Assembly: GCA_965216325.1 (NCBI GenBank)
Contig: OZ244160.1
Location: forward strand, 544,001 to 608,000
Reading direction: 5' to 3'
Source: Coraliomargarita sp.
GTDB taxonomy: Bacteria > Verrucomicrobiota > Verrucomicrobiia > Opitutales > Coraliomargaritaceae
Length of the DNA: 64,000 bases
Below are positions 4,704-13,781 of the stretch, one piece after another. How positions within the stretch are numbered: the first letter of the stretch is position 1; each line of letters starts with the position of its first letter. The position numbers and the translations under genes were made by a program. A model generated the notes under the pieces. That model saw only the letters and a list, made by a program, of their open reading frames with translations. It made no database searches and had not been told where the DNA came from.

Positions 4704-4964
4704 ATGAAAGGTTTGGTGTTCACAGAATTCCTTGAGATGGTGGAATCTAAGTTCGGATATGAAGTGTTGGACCGTTTGACGTCTTTGCCATCCTTAAAGG
4801 GCCATGGAGCTTACACTTCGGTTGGAAACTATCCGCATGGTGAGATGTTGAAAATGCTCGACGAGCTGCATGGCGCGGTTGGGCTGCCACACCAAGAGCT
4901 GATCATGGCTTTCGCGGAGTGGCTATTCGGGACTTTTCTGAAGGTCCATCCGGAGTTTTTTGAG
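4704..4964 (+). pseudogene. Truncated heme-NO-binding (H-NOX/HNOB) domain protein, N-terminal ~87 aa only
   Basis: MKGLVFTEFLEMVESKFG...AYTSVGNYPHGEM...FAEWLF...HPEFF is a typical HNOB N-terminus; after ~4964 the frame runs into the antisense of the neighbouring gene. Confidence 0.75.
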
Positions 4965-5347
4965 CGGGCTTCGCTGCCGCCGCTCGTGCTCGGAGTGCCT
5001 TTGCCGGGGCCGCGACCTTCGCCGCCGTTTTCAGCGCGTTTTGCTTCGTGGAAGGCGCGCATTTCTTCGCGGGTGATGTTGCCATCGCCATCCGTGTCGA
5101 TCTCGGAGAAATTCTCCAGCAGGCGCTCGGCGTTGGCAGCCTCCGCCTCGTCGAGGGAGATCTGGCCATCCTGATTCGTGTCCATCTTTTTCAGATGCTG
5201 GGCGCGCTTCTGCTTCATGCCCTTTTTGCCACCTTTTTCGCAGTGCTTACCGTTGGTGTCGTCGCGGGTGCTACTGTCTTGCGCGCTTGCAAAGGCGGGG
5301 ATCAAGAGGGCGGCCAGTGCAGTGATGAGGAGTGTTTTGATTTTCAT
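4829..5347 (-). CDS. Secreted EF-hand protein; native C-terminus probably lost at the ~4965 junction
   Basis: Signal peptide MKIKTLLITALAALLIPAFASA; two EF-hand loops DTNQDGQISLDE and DTDGDGNITREE. Confidence 0.75.
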   Translation of the reverse strand: MKIKTLLITALAALLIPAFASAQDSSTRDDTNGKHCEKGGKKGMKQKRAQHLKKMDTNQDGQISLDEAEAANAERLLENFSEIDTDGDGNITREEMRAFHEAKRAENGGEGRGPGKGTPSTSGGSEARSKNSGWTFRKVPNSHSAKAMISSWCGSPTAPCSSSSIFNISPCG

Positions 5348-5459
5348 GGGATGTATTTGAGTGAATGCTTCAAAATCGCCGTTGGTGGCGTGTTCATCCC
5401 TAATATCGTGAGCCGTTCCGGAAAGTTGCAGCGAATTGTCGGCTCGCTGTTCCAAAAAC

Positions 5460-5559
5460 GGTTCGCCCCAAAGACATCGGGTTCATTCCATGGCATTGCG
5501 CCATACAAGTGTTACCGATGTCCTTGTGCTATCTGTTACCGATGTCTTTGGGGCGAACC
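5460..5559. repeat. Perfect 21-bp inverted repeat (GGTTCGCCCCAAAGACATCGG / CCGATGTCTTTGGGGCGAACC) with a 58-bp spacer
   Basis: Arms at 5460-5480 and 5539-5559; TGTTACCGATGTC occurs twice at the right side. Confidence 0.8.
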
Positions 5560-5700
5560 AATGATGATACCCGTCTTTACTGCCGACATAATTCCAGATA
5601 CTAACCTTGGGTTCCTGCCATTGACCTTTGGCTTGTTGAACTCCGGCACAAAAAGAAAACGCATTAAGGCCATCCTGAGCCAACAGGCGCTCAGCGGCTT

Positions 5701-5763
5701 GTTCAACCATCGTTCAAGGCCGAGCTTCGTCCCTCAGCTCGGCTAGAACGTTTATTGTTCGGC
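5701..5763 (-). other. attC site 1 (end of the yefM-yoeB cassette)
   Basis: Minus strand: GCCGAAC (R'') directly after the yoeB stop, palindrome CGTTCTAGCCGAGCT...AGCTCGGCCTTGAACG, then GTTGAAC (R'). R'' is the exact complement of the cassette start GTTCGGC at 6312-6318. Confidence 0.85.
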
Positions 5764-6018
5764 TCAGTAGTGGTGTCGTAGTTGAGCAATCTGAATTTCA
5801 TCTCCTTCGATTCGATAAACAATTCGATGCTCTTCATTTATTCTTCTAGACCAAAAACCTGAAAGTGTGTGCTTCAGTGGCTCTGGCTTACCGATTCCTT
5901 CATGTCGATTACGGTCAATATCCTTAATTAGCTCATTTACCTTCTTGAGCATTCTTTTGTCTGTTTTCTGCCAGTAGAGATAATCTTCCCAAGCTCGGTC
6001 CGAGAATATTTTCTTCAT
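5764..6018 (-). CDS. yoeB: Txe/YoeB-family toxin
   Basis: FSDRAWEDYLYWQ...GIGKPEPLKH.LSGFWSRRINEEHRIVY...HY; its start overlaps the antitoxin stop. Confidence 0.93.
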   Translation of the reverse strand: MKKIFSDRAWEDYLYWQKTDKRMLKKVNELIKDIDRNRHEGIGKPEPLKHTLSGFWSRRINEEHRIVYRIEGDEIQIAQLRHHY

Positions 6019-6266
6019 TCAATCAATTCTCTTTCAGTTCCTTTTTTGGCATTCAATTGCTCGATGGAATCAATAAGTCGCTTTGCATTCTTTGGGCTTC
6101 TGAGCAGATAGGTAGTCTCCTGCATAGATTCAAAATCTTCCAGAGACATCATGACTACAGCATCCGTGCCTTTCTTTGTGATGATGACAGGGTCGTGGTT
6201 CTCGCAAACTTGAGTGATTGTGTTGGCCAGATTTTCTCTCGCGTGTGAATAGGTGATGGCGTTCAT
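6015..6266 (-). CDS. yefM: Phd/YefM-family antitoxin
   Basis: MNAITYSHARENLA...HDPVIITKKG..AVVMMSLEDFESMQETTYLLRSPKNAKRL. Confidence 0.93.
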   Translation of the reverse strand: MNAITYSHARENLANTITQVCENHDPVIITKKGTDAVVMMSLEDFESMQETTYLLRSPKNAKRLIDSIEQLNAKKGTERELIE

Positions 6267-6372
6267 GGTTGTCCAATATGCTGGACAATTGCATGCGGTC
6301 AAATTCTTTCTGCCGAACGTGGAGGATGAGCGATTAGTGGGCGCAGCACACTAGTTGCTCAATGCGACTGGG

Positions 6373-8278
6373 GTGTGCCGAGCATGCGCTCGATGTAAAA
6401 GTGGTTAAAGTCCGCTATAGTAAGAACCTAATCATAAAATGAAAGAACTATTACCAGATGCCAAGGGCGTTGTCGTGAGGCAGGGTCTGAAGGAAGGCTA
6501 TGGGAAAGCTGCGAGCTGATGAACAAAAACTGCATAGAAGGCCGACGTGGTCTGGTGAGCTGGCACCACACAGCGAAACCGCTAGGTTCAGCCACGCAGG
6601 TAAATGCAGCAGTTGTGCAGCGGAGCATCGAGTGCTTACCTCGGGAGGCCTCAGCGAGTGGCATGGGTTGGCTTAAAGGTGTCAATCAAGCCCATGCACC
6701 TGAGTCAGTAATGACACAGGCGGCACTGGTTGAGGAGTCAGCAGCGAGCATAGTAGTCATGGAACCGCGAGCCATGAGTAGGTCGATAGGCCGAAGAGCA
6801 TGGAGGTCTCGAACGTGATGAAGGCTCAAACCGTATATGGGCAGTCCGACCCGCAGGCAGGTTCACCTCTCACTGGCACAGACCCGTGTCGAGAGTTGGG
6901 CGATGTTTGTGCAGGGAAGCATGGGGCTGCCGAGCAAGAACTACTGGAGTTGATGCTGGACCGCGCTAATCTGAACGCAGCTTGGCGGCGTGTGCGCAGC
7001 AACGGTGGAGCTTCTGGCATCGACGGTATGTCGATCGAGGACTTTCTGCCGTTTGCGCGCGAGCACTGGTCGCGGATCGAGACTCAACTGAAAGAGGGAA
7101 CCTACCAGCCAGCCGCGGTGCGCCGCGTCTGGATACCGAAGGACAATGGGGAGAAGCGCCCACTGGGCATCCCCACGGTGTTGGATCGTGTGATCCAGCA
7201 AGCCATCGCTCAGGTAATTGCGCCGATCTTTGAGGCACAGTTCAGTGAGCACAGCTTCGGCTTTCGTCCAGAACGCCGAGCTCATGACGCAGTCAAGTCG
7301 ATCCAAAGCGCAGCCGCCAAAGGTCACGTGTACGCGGTCGATTGTGACCTGAAGTCATTCTTCGACACGGTCGATCATCGTGAATTGATGCAGCGTCTAG
7401 CGCGCCGGATCAAAGACGGGCGCGTGTTGCGCCTGATCTACCGCTACCTGAAAGCAGGCATCCGCTTGCCCGATGGCAACACCGAGGCAACCGCCGAGGG
7501 GGTGCCACAGGGGGGACCGCTCAGTCCGCTACTGGCCAATATCATGCTCGATGACCTCGACCATGAACTCGAACAACGCGGGCACCGTTTCGCACGCTAC
7601 GCCGACGATTTTGTTATCGTCGTCCAAAGCAAGCGAGCGGCTGAGCGCGTGATGCACAGCATCAGTGGCTTCATCGAAGCGAAGCTCAAACTGATCGTGA
7701 ATCGCGAGAAAACGAAGGCGGGTCGGCTGACACAGTGCAGCTTCCTCGGATTCGTGATCTCGCCCAAGCGTATCCGCTGCTTGGATACCAAACTGCACAC
7801 GTTCAAGAAGACCATCCGTCAAATCACCTGTCGCAGTTGGGGCATCTCCATGGAGGAACGCCTCGAACGTCTACGACTGTATGTGAATGGCTGGCTGGGT
7901 TACTTCGCTATCGGTGTGCCGTTCAAGGATATCCGCAGCATGGATCAATGGCTACGAAGGCGTGTGCGCTTGTGCTACTGGAAACAGTGGCGTTTACCGC
8001 GCACGCGCTACCGCAAGCTACGCGCGCTTGGGATCAACCCGAAGACGATTAAGCAGGCTAGTCGTTGTCGAAAAGGCTACTGGCGCTGCAGCAAACTGCG
8101 AGTGGTCAGTATCGCGATGAACAACCAATGGCTCGCCGAACAAGGCTGCCCCTCAATCAAAGAACAGTGGCTCAAACTCTGCTATCCAAACGGATAGCCC
8201 TAACGGAACCGCCGTGCTACGGAGCCGTATGGCCGGTGGTGTGGGGGCGGGAGTCAGTGATGGCTCCCGCTACCCGAT
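6373..8278 (+). mobile_element. Group II intron A, copy 1 (IIC-like, attC-inserted), 1906 nt
   Basis: 5' GTGTG; domain V CCGCCGTGCTACGGAGCCGTATGGCCGGTGG; domain VI ending TACCCGAT; boundaries defined by near-identity with the copy at 10953-12858. Confidence 0.9.
6800..8197 (+). CDS. ltrA: Intron-encoded reverse transcriptase/maturase of intron A (no endonuclease domain; true start may be ATG 6818)
   Basis: RPLGIPTVLDRVIQQA, SFGFRP, DLKSFFD, GVPQGGPLSPLLANI, RYADD, maturase X domain GWLGYF...YWKQW. Confidence 0.93.
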   Translation: MEVSNVMKAQTVYGQSDPQAGSPLTGTDPCRELGDVCAGKHGAAEQELLELMLDRANLNAAWRRVRSNGGASGIDGMSIEDFLPFAREHWSRIETQLKEGTYQPAAVRRVWIPKDNGEKRPLGIPTVLDRVIQQAIAQVIAPIFEAQFSEHSFGFRPERRAHDAVKSIQSAAAKGHVYAVDCDLKSFFDTVDHRELMQRLARRIKDGRVLRLIYRYLKAGIRLPDGNTEATAEGVPQGGPLSPLLANIMLDDLDHELEQRGHRFARYADDFVIVVQSKRAAERVMHSISGFIEAKLKLIVNREKTKAGRLTQCSFLGFVISPKRIRCLDTKLHTFKKTIRQITCRSWGISMEERLERLRLYVNGWLGYFAIGVPFKDIRSMDQWLRRRVRLCYWKQWRLPRTRYRKLRALGINPKTIKQASRCRKGYWRCSKLRVVSIAMNNQWLAEQGCPSIKEQWLKLCYPNG

Positions 8279-10175
8279 TATGCCCGGCATGTTGTTAAAG
8301 TTGTGAGGTGTAAGTCCTCTGTGAGTATGTCCAAAATAACAATTCAATCACTAGTGAAGCACAAGGGCAAAGTCGTGAGGCTATTGTCTGGAAGCAGTGT
8401 GGATCAAAGGCATGAGCCGATGCACAAAAACGGCATAGGAGGCGTGTGCAGTGGGATGAGCGGGCCCAGGATCGCGAAGTCCTCTTTTGGACGAACTGTA
8501 TGCGTAAATGTCGCGGTTGTGTGCCGAAGGTTTAACAACTTATCCGGGGAGGCCTCGGCCAGTGGCGTCAGTGAGCTTAAATGTGCTCGTCGTAGCTGCC
8601 GCAGCGGATGCAGTGATGCATGCGTGATCATGGGCCGAGGAGTCAGCAAAGGGCATAGTAGCCGCGGAGACGAGCTTGTCAGTGGCAGGACGGACTCACG
8701 CAGCGGTGAAGGCCTGCAATACGTATGGCAAGCGGACTTGCCTCTGGAACCCACCCATAAACGCCGACCGGCGCGCGGGCACGAGGAACTGGAGCAACAC
8801 AGCCGCTTGCAGCCGGAGCTAATGGAGGCGATCTTCAGTAGCTCCAACCTCGATGCGGCGTATCGCCGCGTCAAAGCCAATGGTGGTGCCGCTGGTGTGG
8901 ATGGCGTGAGTCTGAGCAAATTTACGCTGTGGTTTCGACTGCGGCGTGATCGCTTGCTGCGCCGTCTGCATCTAGGTAACTACCGTCCGAGTCCGGTTCG
9001 CCGGACTTACATTGCCAAGTCGAACGGGAACAGGCGCCCTCTGGGTATCCCAACTGTGTTCGACCGAATCGTGCAACAAGCGATTCATCAAGTGCTCTGT
9101 CCGTTATTGGATCCGAGCTTTAGTGTCCACAGCTACGGTTTCCGTCCGAACTGTCGTGGCCACGACGCGGTGCGCCGCATCATGACTACGAACAAGGAAG
9201 GCTACCGCTGGGCAGTGGACATCGACCTGAAGAGCTTTTTCGACAAGGTCCCGCAAGCGCGTGCGTTGGAAGCACTACGCGAGCGTCTCGGTGGGGATGG
9301 TCCCGTCGTGCGCTTGATTAAGCGCTATCTGCAAGCGGGCTACGTCGAACTGGGCAGCTTCAAAGCCACACCCGAAGGCATGCCGCAAGGTGGACCGCTC
9401 TCGCCGCTGCTGTCCAATCTGGTGCTGGATGCGCTGGACAAGGAATTGGAGCAGCGCGGGCATCGCTTCGTCCGCTATGCCGACGACTTCGTGGTGTTGG
9501 TCAAAAGCGAACGCGCCGCACAGCGCGTGTTCGCGAGCCTATGTCGTTTCATTGAGAAGCGACTCGGTCTGGAAGTGAACCGCGACAAGAGTGCGGTGCG
9601 TCCGATTCGTGAGCTGAGCTATCTCGGCTTCAGTTTTCGATTGGGCAAGATTGCGGTCAGCGAAGCTTCGCTGGCCGAGTTCAACTACCGTCTCAAGCAA
9701 TACACCCGTCGTAACTGGAGTGTGAGCATGGAATATCGTCTGTATCAGATCCGCCAATACGTGCGGGGCTGGATGGGCTACTTCGGACTCAGTGAAAACT
9801 CCAGTTTATGGATCTGGATTGACCGCTGGCTTCGCAGGCGAGTTCGCATGTGCTACTGGCGCATGTGGAAACGCCCGCGACGTCGCTATCTCAATCTGGT
9901 GAAAATTGGCTCCAATAGTAAGTTTGCTGGTGGCTTTGCTAAAAGCTCAAAGGGCTACTGGCGTCTGGCTCAAGCGCTGGGCACACAAACGGCAATGAGC
10001 AATCAATGGCTAGAGGAACAAGGCCTGATCAACATCAGGCAACAATGGTGGAGTTTAAAGCTCCTGCGTATAACCGCCTTAAAACAGACTGCGTAACACT
10101 GTGATCAGTCTGGCTGCGGACCCGCACGGCAGGTGGTGTGAGAGCCGGGGGACTTAGTGCCCTCGGCTACTCGAT
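8279..10175 (+). mobile_element. Group II intron B (distinct sequence); its first nucleotide G is apparently displaced to 6372 by intron A
   Basis: (G)TATGCCCGGCATG resembles IIC 5' ends (GTGCGCCCGGCATG); domain V/VI at ~10105-10175 ends TACTCGAT, followed by the attC remainder TTCTAC. Confidence 0.85.
8822..10096 (+). CDS. ltrA: Intron-encoded reverse transcriptase/maturase of intron B (start uncertain; the upstream part of the 597-aa ORF is ribozyme sequence)
   Basis: RPLGIPTVFDRIVQQA, SYGFRP, DLKSFFD, GMPQGGPLSPLLSNL, RYADD, GWMGYF...YWRMW. Confidence 0.9.
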   Translation: MEAIFSSSNLDAAYRRVKANGGAAGVDGVSLSKFTLWFRLRRDRLLRRLHLGNYRPSPVRRTYIAKSNGNRRPLGIPTVFDRIVQQAIHQVLCPLLDPSFSVHSYGFRPNCRGHDAVRRIMTTNKEGYRWAVDIDLKSFFDKVPQARALEALRERLGGDGPVVRLIKRYLQAGYVELGSFKATPEGMPQGGPLSPLLSNLVLDALDKELEQRGHRFVRYADDFVVLVKSERAAQRVFASLCRFIEKRLGLEVNRDKSAVRPIRELSYLGFSFRLGKIAVSEASLAEFNYRLKQYTRRNWSVSMEYRLYQIRQYVRGWMGYFGLSENSSLWIWIDRWLRRRVRMCYWRMWKRPRRRYLNLVKIGSNSKFAGGFAKSSKGYWRLAQALGTQTAMSNQWLEEQGLINIRQQWWSLKLLRITALKQTA

Positions 10176-10263
10176 TTCTACCAGACAGTCTGTGGGTTGT
10201 GGGTGGAGTGACGATTCATACTGCTTCTCTTCGTCATGCTAGTTTTCTTCTGTCCGATCGGAT

Positions 10264-10500
10264 TCAATGCTTCTTTTTTCGAATGCAGGTGTAGGTCGCG
10301 AAAATAAAACCAAGCCCAGCCCCGACGAGCGGATCTCTGACGAAACCTGCTCTATACTCTTCTTTTGTTATTGGCTCCCAGTGAGATGAGTTCTGAGTGC
10401 TTCGTGTGTCGAAGAAACCTAAGATGCCGCTAGCCCAGACGAGTCCTCCTATGGCTCCAAAAATGAAGTAGAAGAGATATATGTTTAAGTTCTGTTTCAT
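10264..10500 (-). CDS. Cassette gene: small two-TM membrane protein of unknown function (78 aa)
   Basis: ATG 7 nt after the cassette start with GAAGGA RBS; two hydrophobic segments; bounded by attC3 and attC2. Confidence 0.7.
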   Translation of the reverse strand: MKQNLNIYLFYFIFGAIGGLVWASGILGFFDTRSTQNSSHWEPITKEEYRAGFVRDPLVGAGLGFIFATYTCIRKKKH

Positions 10501-10506
10501 TCCTTC

Positions 10507-10612
10507 GTAGAACGTGAAGAGTAGTCGATGCGAGCCTAACGGGTCAATCGTGCAAATGATTCTCGGATAACCCAGCGGCTGATCTCGCATTGACTAGCTC
10601 GACTGGTTGGCA
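10507..10612 (-). other. attC site 3 (intact, 106 bp)
   Basis: Plus strand GTAGAAC...TAGTCGATGCGAG...CTCGCATTGACTA...CGACTGGTTGGCA; GTTGGCA is the exact complement of the cassette start TGCCAAC at 10893-10899. Confidence 0.85.
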
Positions 10613-10626
10613 TCCCCCGCTTCGAT

Positions 10627-10878
10627 CTAAAAGGGTGTGTCGATTTCATCGTCATCGCTCGTCGGCTCATCGGTCATATACTCCCACATTTCATTTTGGT
10701 GCAACCAGATTGGGTCTGCATTCCGACGAATAAAATCATCCTGAGGGATCCCTTCAACTAGTGGCTGTATTCTTTTAACTCTCTTTTGTTTGCCTCCAAC
10801 GAAAACGGTCTCGTAGAGCTCACGGCGCCTCTTCTTTTCTGCCTTTTCTGATGGTGTGAGTTTTCGCTTTCTTCCCAT
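10627..10878 (-). CDS. Cassette gene: small basic/acidic hypothetical protein (83 aa)
   Basis: MGRKRKLTPSEKAEKKRRRE...FIRRNADPIWLHQNEMWEYM; bounded by attC4 and attC3. Confidence 0.75.
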   Translation of the reverse strand: MGRKRKLTPSEKAEKKRRRELYETVFVGGKQKRVKRIQPLVEGIPQDDFIRRNADPIWLHQNEMWEYMTDEPTSDDDEIDTPF

Positions 10879-10952
10879 TTTTAATTCATTTTTGCCAACG
10901 TAAAGAGGGGTAATCACTGGGCGCAGCACAGTGATTGACCCTCTCGACTGGT

Positions 10953-12858
10953 GTGTGCCGAGCATGCGCTCGATGTAAAAGTGGTTAAAGTCCGCTATAG
11001 TAAGAACCTAATCATAAAATGAAAGAACTATTACCAGATGCCAAGGGCGTTGTCGTGAGGCAGGGTCTGAAGGAAGGCTATGGGAAAGCTGCGAGCTGAT
11101 GAACAAAAACTGCATAGAAGGCCGACGTGGTCTGGTGAGCTGGCACCACACAGCGAAACCGCTAGGTTCAGCCACGCAGGTAAATGCAGCAGTTGTGCAG
11201 CGGAGCATCGAGTGCTTACCTCGGGAGGCCTCAGCGAGTGGCATGGGTTGGCTTAAAGGTGTCAATCAAGCCCATGCACCTGAGTCAGTAATGACACAGG
11301 CGGCACTGGTTGAGGATTCAGCAGCGAGCATAGTAGTCATGGAACCGCGAGCCATGAGTAGGTCGATAGGCCGAAGAGCATGGAGGTCTCGAACGTGATG
11401 AAGGCTCAAACCGTATATGGGCAGTCCGACCCGCAGGCAGGTTCACCTCTCACTGGCACAGACCCGTGTCGAGAGCTGGGCGATGTTTGTGCAGGGAAGC
11501 ATGGGGCTGCCGAGCAAGAACTACTGGAGTTGATGCTGGACCGCGCTAATCTGAACGCAGCTTGGCGGCGTGTGCGCAGCAACGGTGGAGCTTCTGGCAT
11601 CGACGGTATGTCGATCGAGGACTTTCTGCCGTTTGCGCGCGAGCACTGGTCACGGATCGAGACTCAACTGAAAGAGGGAACCTACCAGCCAGCCGCGGTG
11701 CGCCGCGTCTGGATACCGAAGGACAATGGGGAGAAGCGCCCACTGGGCATCCCCACGGTGTTGGATCGTGTGATCCAGCAAGCCATCGCTCAGGTAATTG
11801 CGCCGATCTTTGAGGCACAGTTCAGTGAGCACAGCTTCGGCTTTCGTCCAGAACGCCGAGCCCATGACGCAGTCAAGTCGATCCAAAGCGCAGCCACTGA
11901 AGGTCACGTGTACGCGGTCGATTGTGACCTGAAGTCATTCTTCGACACGGTCGATCATCGTGAATTGATGCAGCGTCTAGCGCGCCGGATCAAAGACGGG
12001 CGCGTGTTGCGCCTGATCTACCGCTACCTGAAAGCAGGCATCCGCTTGCCCGATGGCAACACCGAGGCAACCGCCGAGGGGGTGCCACAGGGGGGACCGC
12101 TCAGTCCGCTACTGGCCAATATCATGCTCGATGACCTCGACCATGAACTCGAACAACGCGGGCACCGTTTCGCACGCTACGCCGACGATTTTGTTATCGT
12201 CGTCCAAAGCAAGCGAGCGGCTGAGCGCGTGATGCACAGCATCAGTGGCTTCATCGAAGCGAAGCTCAAACTGATCGTGAATCGCGAGAAAACGAAGGCG
12301 GGTCGGCTGACACAGTGCAGCTTCCTCGGATTCGTGATCTCGCCCAAGCGTATCCGCTGCTTGGATACCAAACTGCACACGTTCAAGAAGACCATCCGTC
12401 AAATCACCTGTCGCAGTTGGGGCATCTCCATGGAGGAACGCCTCGAACGTCTACGACTGTATGTGAATGGCTGGCTGGGTTACTTCGCTATCGGTGTGCC
12501 GTTCAAGGATATCCGCAGCATGGATCAATGGCTACGAAGGCGTGTGCGCTTGTGCTACTGGAAACAGTGGCGTTTACCGCGCACGCGCTACCGCAAGCTA
12601 CGCGCGCTTGGGATCAACCCGAAGACGATTAAGCAGGCTAGTCGTTGTCGAAAAGGCTACTGGCGCTGCAGCAAACTGCGAGTGGTCAGTATCGCGATGA
12701 ACAACCAATGGCTCGCCGAACAAGGCTGCCCCTCAATCAAAGAACAGTGGCTCAAACTCTGCTATCCAAACGGATAGCTCTAACGGAACCGCCGTGCTAC
12801 GGAGCCGTATGGCCGGTGGTGTGGGGGCGGGAGTCAGTGATGGCTCCCGCTACCCGAT
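10953..12858 (+). mobile_element. Group II intron A, copy 2 (1906 nt)
   Basis: Near-identical to 6373-8278 (about 8 substitutions counted by eye); inserted at GT|T of the attC R'' bottom strand. Confidence 0.92.
11380..12777 (+). CDS. ltrA: Intron-encoded reverse transcriptase/maturase of intron A copy 2
   Basis: Identical to the 6800-8197 protein except AK->TE near residue 173. Confidence 0.93.
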   Translation: MEVSNVMKAQTVYGQSDPQAGSPLTGTDPCRELGDVCAGKHGAAEQELLELMLDRANLNAAWRRVRSNGGASGIDGMSIEDFLPFAREHWSRIETQLKEGTYQPAAVRRVWIPKDNGEKRPLGIPTVLDRVIQQAIAQVIAPIFEAQFSEHSFGFRPERRAHDAVKSIQSAATEGHVYAVDCDLKSFFDTVDHRELMQRLARRIKDGRVLRLIYRYLKAGIRLPDGNTEATAEGVPQGGPLSPLLANIMLDDLDHELEQRGHRFARYADDFVIVVQSKRAAERVMHSISGFIEAKLKLIVNREKTKAGRLTQCSFLGFVISPKRIRCLDTKLHTFKKTIRQITCRSWGISMEERLERLRLYVNGWLGYFAIGVPFKDIRSMDQWLRRRVRLCYWKQWRLPRTRYRKLRALGINPKTIKQASRCRKGYWRCSKLRVVSIAMNNQWLAEQGCPSIKEQWLKLCYPNG

Positions 12859-13781
12859 TGGGTCTTTAATTCTCTAGCCATTCCGACAGCAGCAAAATCT
12901 GCCTTATCGAAGTCTATAGTCTGATTTTTAATCAGCGAGGAGTCTGTCACGACTGCAATATTCACGGACAAACTTGAGATGCCTTTCTCTATTTTTTGTC
13001 CTACTAATCTTGCACCCACGACCAAATGTTTGGTTCCTGAGCCTTTCCAATTGATTGGTTCACTCAACTCGGAAAGCACATAATCCGATCCATCTTCCGA
13101 AGAGAACCTCTTCAAGCACTTTACTTTCAGCGGGAGTAATTGCTCCAGTTCTTCAGGACCTGAGTCGGTAGAGTAGATTTCAATCTCCAAGTCGGATATC
13201 TTAGCAGAAGAGGAGGAGTTCATCGCAATCTCTTTGAATTTAGCATAGAGATCAGGTGGCATGATATACTCGAAAGTTTCATGTTTCGGGTTTATTACCA
13301 ATCCAATGTCTCCACCAAATGCAGTAAGAATACTCTTCATTGGCGCCCAAGCCATATAGCGATAATCCTTCTTCTGCTCCTCGAGATTATCTGCGTATTC
13401 GTTCCTCGTGAAAATGGGCAAGAGTGGCCTGTTCTCTGAGTCGGCAAGTAGGAGGACGCTGTTTAAATCATTTGGGTCCTTGGTAAGCATGCCGACTTCG
13501 GCTTCTTCGAGCGATTTTAGGAAGCCAGGGAGGTATTCCTTCATGCCCATTTTGATTAGTCCGATGGCTGCATCGACGTCATTGCCTTCTGACTTGGCGT
13601 GCTTTTCTAGCTCTGTCGCAATGTCTTTCTTCTGGTTAGGCGACAGGTCCTGTTTCTTTGTCGATCTTGCAGGCTCTCCAGTAGCTTGCTCTTTTTTTCT
13701 TTTATTCTTCTTCGGAAGATAAACGAAAAAATAGAGACCTAGGATTAATAGTAAGACAGGTATTAGGCTTCCATCATTCAT
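12834..13781 (-). CDS. Cassette gene: N-terminally membrane-anchored SseB-like domain protein
   Basis: N-terminal TM helix; LLLADSENRPLLPIFT...GLVINP resembles the SseB N-terminal family; AT-rich; lies between attC5 and attC4. Confidence 0.6.
   Translation of the reverse strand: MNDGSLIPVLLLILGLYFFVYLPKKNKRKKEQATGEPARSTKKQDLSPNQKKDIATELEKHAKSEGNDVDAAIGLIKMGMKEYLPGFLKSLEEAEVGMLTKDPNDLNSVLLLADSENRPLLPIFTRNEYADNLEEQKKDYRYMAWAPMKSILTAFGGDIGLVINPKHETFEYIMPPDLYAKFKEIAMNSSSSAKISDLEIEIYSTDSGPEELEQLLPLKVKCLKRFSSEDGSDYVLSELSEPINWKGSGTKHLVVGARLVGQKIEKGISSLSVNIAVVTDSSLIKNQTIDFDKADFAAVGMARELKTQSGSGSHH

Follow-up and report, generated by a model that had tools for sequence, protein, structure and literature searches.

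Group IIC-attC introns of the S.ma.I2 type encode a reverse transcriptase (RT)/maturase without endonuclease domain and insert on the bottom strand of attC, within its R'' box and in antisense orientation to the cassettes, the target being recognized by a short pairing between exon-binding site 1 (EBS1) and intron-binding site 1 (IBS1) and by an upstream DNA hairpin (PMC3001079, PMC7923331). The consensus target in this R'' box is TTGT/T, which covers IBS1 and IBS3 (PMC7923331). Twintrons, which consist of one group II intron placed within another by an insertion event (Zimmerly and Semper 2015, PMC4424553), are known from Euglena plastids, from bacterial intergenic regions and from the nested introns of Methanosarcina (PMC4424553), and Thermosynechococcus TeI3c/TeI4c has been named as an example (PMC8643678). 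Furthermore, the IIB1 intron EcKTE56.groEL forms exact head-to-tail tandems, in which its exon-binding site 3 (EBS3, a U) wobble-pairs with G1 of the resident intron (PMC12584367). The present work deals with a window of 64,000 nt (genome 544-608 kb) from Coraliomargarita sp. (genome G000; OZ244160.1), whose genome is a single contig of 3.06 Mb. Positions 6312-10181 of this window are one attC bottom strand holding an intron, A, nested in a second intron, B, i.e. a twintron.

A twintron in an attC site

The nesting of A in B is a deterministic arrangement of sequence and not a statistical signal. The 5' part of the attC bottom strand (6312-6371) reads gccgaacgtggagg...caatgcgactgg and is followed by a single G at 6372. 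The left junction is therefore caatgcgactgg, then g, then GTGTGCCGAGCATG, with which intron A begins; A ends 1906 nt later with GCTACCCGAT. At the inner junction, ctcccgctacccgat (8278) abuts tatgcccggcatg (8279), from where the second intron opens with TATGCCCGGCATG and runs to GGCTACTCGAT. The right junction reads ggctactcgat (10175) / ttctac (10176-10181). All these junctions are as the original prediction described them. By the definition in PMC4424553, the succession of G1 of B (6372), the whole of A (6373-8278) and U2 of B (8279) makes this locus a twintron.

Both introns look intact. Family RF02001 (group II domain I) matches the two bodies end to end, at 6469-6634 (126.6 bits) and at 8369-8538 (116.1 bits), and RF01998 matches 8602-8714 (47.9 bits) and, weakly and under its gathering score, 6697-6784 (28.8 bits). 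RF00029, the family of domains V and VI, gave no match in 6250-10300 even at a permissive Rfam threshold, and these two domains were therefore taken from folds. In the folds of both A and B, domain V is normal and the bulged A of domain VI stands seven bases from the 3' end. Identity between the two proteins amounts to 48% (212/446 residues); each protein has only RVT_1 and GIIM above cut-off and no DNA endonuclease domain, and the B protein has in addition a weak match to RdRP_1, below cut-off.

Domain V of the B family has a peculiarity of its own. It carries an extra hairpin of ~33 nt (10080-10112; CAGACUG...CAGUCUG) in its 5' strand, at the place where A has a single bulged U. This hairpin contains the stop codon of the RT gene of B and is conserved, with some paired changes, in five B-family members including the Pelagicoccus copy. 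Such an insertion within the most conserved domain of group II introns is unusual.

Like the described group IIC-attC introns, A and B encode an RT and maturase without endonuclease domain and lie in the bottom strand of attC, opposite to cassette transcription. A also follows the TTGT/T target rule, as its copies cut at GT/T (CTGGT/T in three out of five, CTGGG/T in two), which is the published position (PMC7923331). B does not follow this rule: all five junction pairs read CTGG/TTC, one base upstream of the consensus cut, and B and its relatives thus differ from known IIC-attC introns in inserting at G/TT by means of a CCAG EBS1. B resembles the attC-intron family in its working and in its RT clade and departs from it in the position of the cut. 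The setting also differs from that of known IIC-attC introns (PMC3001079, PMC7923331): a chromosomal cassette cluster, no integrase gene in the window and two introns in one attC.

As in known twintrons (PMC4424553), a mobile intron has inserted in another, removal of the inner one restores the outer one, and the site is intergenic, at no cost to a host gene. Here, in contrast to those described in that review, the inner intron is flanked by nucleotides 1 and 2 of the outer one instead of occupying a domain loop or the open reading frame (ORF), and A would have been drawn by the flanking exon, the hairpin and the first two bases of B rather than by a homing site inside B. The likeness to EcKTE56.groEL (PMC12584367) is that a newcomer enters an occupied site as the 5' exon signals survive, and that the first position after the cut decides the outcome; the difference is that A is not the same intron as the resident, has a register one base further on, uses U2 of the resident for the first base of its 3' exon and comes to lie nested. 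Twintrons as such are known, as are attC introns and repeated insertion at one site. A IIC/attC twintron, nesting at +1 and an explanation by two EBS1 registers with a branch cutting at G/TT are new as far as could be seen: no earlier report of a IIC/attC twintron was found in the literature, the 2007-2009 primary papers on attC introns, which may hold one, lying outside the coverage.

The guanine at position 6372

Four independent lines show that G6372 is nucleotide 1 of B (GUAUG...), as originally proposed: stand-alone copies, empty sites, intron-free alleles and the register of EBS1, which is treated further below. Four B-family 5' ends are present in the genome, namely B, a full copy with 80% identity (B2) and two ORF-less derivatives of ~650 nt. 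The three stand-alone copies all read cgactgg-G-TATGCCCGGCATG (CGACTGG/GTATGCC) and a B-family copy from another genus (G015) likewise reads cgactgg/GTATGCCCGGCATG (CGACTGG/GTATGCC), so that the G accompanies B in the absence of A. TTC stands directly 3' of all five B-family 3' ends of the genome. B-family introns turned up in only one of the 60 relatives searched.

The ORF-less derivatives (L003:1500-2158, genome 2272852-2273510; L007:1500-2151, genome 2845060-2845711) have kept the ribozyme domains and have lost the RT gene by deletion, and each occupies its own attC, between CTGG and TTC. One of them has CCGG instead of CCAG as EBS1, which still pairs with CUGG via G-U. Moreover, a 5'-truncated fragment of B (genome 2852453-2852925) comprises its last 473 nt with 99.4% identity and ends CTCGAT/ttctgc. 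It lies ~1.2 kb from an integrase gene at 2854084, and at its 5' break it borders on a short direct repeat that lies within an unrelated gene.

Empty attC sites of the same genome lack a third G. A nhmmer model built from eight intron-bearing attC sites gave 26 matches over the whole genome, eight of which are the seed sites themselves. Eight others are unoccupied sites ending in CTGG; the next bases are TT in six and AT in two, and a third G is found in none (0/8), as the original prediction had stated for the other attC sites. Five matches belong to a second attC subtype, which ends in YCT before the alignment stops and continues with TGTT (three sites), TGAT (one) or CATT (one), and the remaining five are weak and probably spurious. 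In addition, the boundary of the 3' exon of B exists without intron in two relatives, G002 (same genus; ccacgtctgg/ttctaccagacagtctgtggg) and G011 (catcgtctgg/ttctaccagacgattctgtgg). Both have two G and read gtctgg/ttctaccagac, not the three-G forms CTGGGTTC or CTGGGTTCTAC; an intron-free allele of the first of these forms had been named beforehand as evidence against the assignment. Furthermore, with the G included, A and B can be aligned position by position at their 5' ends (GUGUGCCGAGCAUG and GUAUGCCCGGCAUG), G6372 facing G1 of A.

The same evidence bears on the view that A and B are plain tandem introns. G6372 would then belong to the host, the attC ending in CTGGG, B would start with UAUG and A would lie exactly at the border between exon and B. 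One copy of A without B does have a 5' exon ending in CTGGG, which speaks for it. This view is nevertheless highly improbable, given that GGG occurs in 0/8 empty CTGG sites, that the intron-free alleles of G002 and G011 (CTGG/TTCTACC) contradict it, that the rare GGG would be required at all four B-family 5' ends of the genome and at one in G015, and that an intron starting with UAUG would lose the G1 that aligns with that of A.

EBS1 registers and order of insertion

The offset of one base between A and B can be read in their EBS1. The hairpin at positions 90-105 of RF02001 has an 8-nt loop, GC-ACCA-CA in A and GC-CCAG-GA in B. It was compared among 80 loci encoding related RTs from public genomes, together with copies from one more genome and one class 1 integron plasmid; the 5' parts were aligned with nhmmer and 44 distinct introns were scored, G-U pairs being allowed. 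In 35 of the 44 introns, all four bases at loop positions 3-6 pair with the final four bases of the exon, and 165 of 176 positions pair overall. When the exon bases are shifted by 1 or 2, only 53-108 positions pair and at most two introns (<=2) reach 4/4. The pairs covary, with the IBS1/EBS1 combinations UUGU/ACAA, UGGU/ACCA, UCGU/ACGA, UAUU/AAUA, UUCA/UGAA, UUGG/CCAA and CUUG/CAAG. This register pairing and this covariation identify the loop as EBS1. Hence the EBS1 of B, CCAG, reads CUGG, the last four bases of 6312-6371 and the IBS1 of B, and B cuts at G/TT; that of A, ACCA, reads UGGU, and A cuts at GT/T. The cut of A has the position of the published attC consensus (PMC7923331), and that of B falls one base earlier. 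Were G6372 a host base, positions 2-6 of the B loop (CCCAG) could pair with CUGGG; however, the C at position 2 is conserved in the family, and positions 3-6 give the register that holds in the 35 introns just mentioned.

Two introns on other branches (L063:258 and L096:1501) cut after TTGG or CTTG with an EBS1 of CCAA or CAAG, i.e. one base short of GT/T. As they lie on other branches, this register arose more than once. Of the 18 relatives with a readable 3' end, 17 have T at the first 3'-exon position (ends miscalled automatically in several rows were set right by eye), which leaves too little variation to map EBS3 by covariation.

Intron A is present in five copies in the genome, 99.4-100% identical to each other, which indicates that it was recently active. 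The copy within the twintron is identical to the one at genome 2762929, so that the nesting event itself is recent. All five copies lie one base past CTGG (CTGGT in three, CTGGG in two) and are followed by T.

From these sequences, it is very probable that one attC was hit twice by retrohoming, B first and then A, which nested after G1 of B. B, with its EBS1 CCAG, pairs with CUGG and inserts between the G and the TT of the R'' core (CTGG/TTCTAC). The occupied site would then read hairpin-CUGG-G/U-AUG, a near-perfect mimic of the target of A: hairpin and spacing would be retained, as would three IBS1 pairs out of four (UGG) and a U at the first 3'-exon position, and only position -1 would differ (G for U). 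Since the occupied site keeps the hairpin, the spacing, UGG and a U after the cut, A would have reverse-spliced behind G1 of B rather than beside B. We infer that B entered first and A second, as joining CGACTGG to TTCTAC would restore a normal GTT core; this order, B at G/TT and then A one base further on inside B, is that of the original prediction and accounts for every base. The reverse order was considered and rejected: B would then stand upstream of A, and A would be preceded by a T. The original prediction also held that A measured its landing point from the same hairpin. Hairpin and spacing are indeed kept, but they would not be the sole cause, the offset being written in the EBS1 loops (CCAG/CUGG for B, ACCA/UGGU for A).

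Some observations weigh against B followed by A. At the twintron site, the pairing of A has one mismatch (UGGG facing ACCA). An ORF-less intron of G015 (L006) has the loop CCAG and yet reads cgattggt/GTGTGCC...CCCGAT/atctcc, where neither register fits cleanly; it is an insertion-ridden copy. Moreover, the copy of A at genome 2274016 (genome 2273966-2275930; L008, L115) reads ccggctggg/A/tctatat, a CTGGG exon without B, so that a G at -1 can occur where no B is present. At this site, the partner box GCAGAAC of the attC predicts GTTCT and GGTCT is present, a G standing where a T is expected. An intron-free allele of the site was not found in 60 relatives, in which only an internal piece of ~80 nt (query 276-370) was matched and not the boundary. 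This G may be a host variant or the trace of something else. A twintron that lost B was rejected as its origin: recombination between the ...CGAT/T ends would leave TTCTAT, and TCTAT is observed.

The near identity of the A copies also raises the question of an assembly artefact, by which wrong flanks would have been joined among five near-identical copies, A not being beside B in the cell. These repeats are 99.4-100% identical over 1.9 kb, which exceeds the length of short reads. An artefact is very unlikely, though, as the genome is a single 3.06-Mb contig in which all five copies of A have distinct flanks, and as the sequence joining the 3' end of A to nucleotide 2 of B is unique and must be present somewhere. 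Furthermore, swapping the two CTGGG 5' flanks would leave insertion of A after G1 of B unchanged.

The features of the locus are collected in the following table.

Table. Features of the attC twintron and of the adjacent A copy (positions in the window)
Feature	Position	Strand	Basis
attC bottom strand, 5' part (R' box GCCGAAC, stem, CGACTGG); 5' exon of B	6312..6371	+	nhmmer attC model, E 1.1e-12
Nucleotide 1 (G) of B, severed from the remainder by A; doubles as position -1 of the 5' exon of A	6372	+	stand-alone copies, empty sites, intron-free alleles, EBS1 register
Intron A, complete group IIC-attC intron (GUGUG...CCCGAU, 1906 nt), inner	6373..8278	+	sequence, Rfam, genomic copies
EBS1 of A, ACCA, positions 3-6 of loop GCACCACA (6563-6570); pairs with UGGU	6565..6568	+	RF02001 positions 94-101, covariation in 44 introns
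RT/maturase gene of A, 465 aa	6800..8197	+	RVT_1 4.5e-42, GIIM 1.3e-15
Domain V (8208-8240) and domain VI (8242-8276, bulged A) of A	8208..8276	+	folds
Intron B from nucleotide 2 to 3' end (UAUGCCCGGCAUG...CUCGAU), outer	8279..10175	+	sequence, Rfam, genomic copies
EBS1 of B, CCAG, positions 3-6 of loop GCCCAGGA (8464-8471); pairs with CUGG	8466..8469	+	alignment, covariation
RT/maturase gene of B, 456 aa from ATG 8726; open frame extends back to GTG 8303	8726..10096	+	RVT_1 8.8e-38, GIIM 8.1e-14
Domain V (10073-10137) and domain VI (10139-10173) of B	10073..10173	+	RNAalifold consensus, 5 B-family sequences
Remainder of attC R'' box, TTCTAC; 3' exon of B	10176..10181	+	sequence; intron-free boundaries in G002 and G011
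Second copy of intron A in the next attC (cgactggt/A/tgggtc), showing its usual GT/T site	10953..12858	+	sequence

Consequences, recurrence and integron setting

The nesting has predictable consequences for splicing. In RNA, B would acquire its 5' end only through excision of A and joining of the flanks of A (CUGGG^UAUGCC). Since nucleotides 2-5 past the 5' splice site of B are those of A until A leaves, this copy of B would have to wait for A before it could splice or move. An ordered splicing, A going out before B, and a silencing of B by A are reasonable expectations from this arrangement. A itself should be little affected by the nesting; another of its copies sits behind the same CTGGG without B. 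A consensus scan of 4800-6900 for promoters and terminators gave three promoter-like sites for 1.9 expected and is uninformative.

Most likely, the arrangement would be an accidental by-product of repeated homing by introns whose registers are one base apart. It bears no sign of selection, since the genome has one composite, the four other copies of A lie outside B and A is absent from three of the four B-family 5' ends. These counts also tell against a selected composite, in which A and B would form a unit, either an ordered two-step splicing/RT system or a jointly mobile element. Two loci of another genome, G061, which share the same junction and have different 3' exons, would fit a mobile composite; their upstream junctions fall at contig ends, and the prospect of such a unit is slight.

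G061 is a Verrucomicrobial metagenome genome. At these loci (L043:560-660 and L045:565-665; also L090 and L091), an ORF-less intron ends with CCGACCCGAT and is directly followed by TGCGCCTGACATGGG. The second intron there is without the G that is present in all five of its stand-alone copies, and the junction is of the kind found in the window. The ORF-less intron, which ends CCCGAT, was seen only in that position.

Every group II intron begins with GU. An occupied attC therefore offers an exon-G/U border to attC introns that need a U after the cut and whose register lies one base further on. Though we consider it rather unlikely, landing after nucleotide 1 of the resident could then be a recurrent rule, and nested pairs could persist or even move as composites.

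The phylogeny of the RTs, one of the checks proposed with the original prediction, places both introns among attC introns. The maximum-likelihood tree contains 41 RT sequences, i.e. 37 of the 40 loci entered plus A, B, B2 and the Pelagicoccus sequence; L056, L082 and L096 were left out (no ORF >=380 aa in the slice used), and neither the near-duplicates L036 and L038 nor the ORF-less L062 copy nor L092 formed part of the set. A and B fall in a clade of 29 rows (support 100/99) together with L104, an intron that occupies the last attC of a class 1 integron carried by a Pseudomonas putida plasmid and that is the only labelled reference in the tree. The RT of this intron is 49% identical to that of A, and the intron reads gaattgt/GTACGCC, with EBS1 ACAA. 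The clade holds all but one of the TTGT- or TGGT-exon introns of the tree. Its sister group consists of eight introns from Bacillota and Bacteroidota, seven of which have other, mostly T-rich 5' exons (e.g. tttt, gttt, tatt). Hence, as judged with one labelled reference, the RTs of A and B group with known attC introns and apart from terminator-targeting IIC introns. The nearest relative of A is in an Opitutaceae metagenome genome and that of B in a Pelagicoccus genome (77% RT identity).

Three integron integrase genes, above the TIGR02249 cut-off, are present in the genome of Coraliomargarita sp. (811175-812110, 2766502-2767434 and 2854084-2855013), and each adjoins a cassette array that also carries attC introns. 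None lies in the window, and the arrays at 550 kb (that of the window) and at 2272 kb have no integrase gene nearby; the local array can therefore be described as a cassette cluster without integrase. The cassette genes beside the introns (5764-6302, 10264-10590, 10627-10965 and 12834-13781) are all on the minus strand. The attC sites read RYYYAAC...GTT on the plus strand, which is also that of the introns; in view of the strand of the neighbouring cassette genes, the introns thus occupy the attC bottom strand, antisense to the cassettes. The cassette that adjoins the twintron attC (5764-6302) is a yefM/yoeB toxin-antitoxin pair (Pfam PhdYeFM_antitox 2e-23, YoeB_toxin 4.6e-38). Toxin-antitoxin pairs of this type are common in chromosomal cassette arrays.

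The twintron does not reveal biology of a new kind: it occupies an intergenic site and the introns are antisense to the cassettes, so that no host function is at stake. It is a natural example of target choice by IIC introns, in which the register of a four-base loop decides between a side-by-side and a nested arrangement of two introns. The same attC family hosts two intron lineages with cuts one base apart. Moreover, a branch of attC introns cutting at G/TT, with its ORF-less derivatives, is now defined and offers a test bed for the respective parts of the hairpin, of IBS1 and of the first 3'-exon base.

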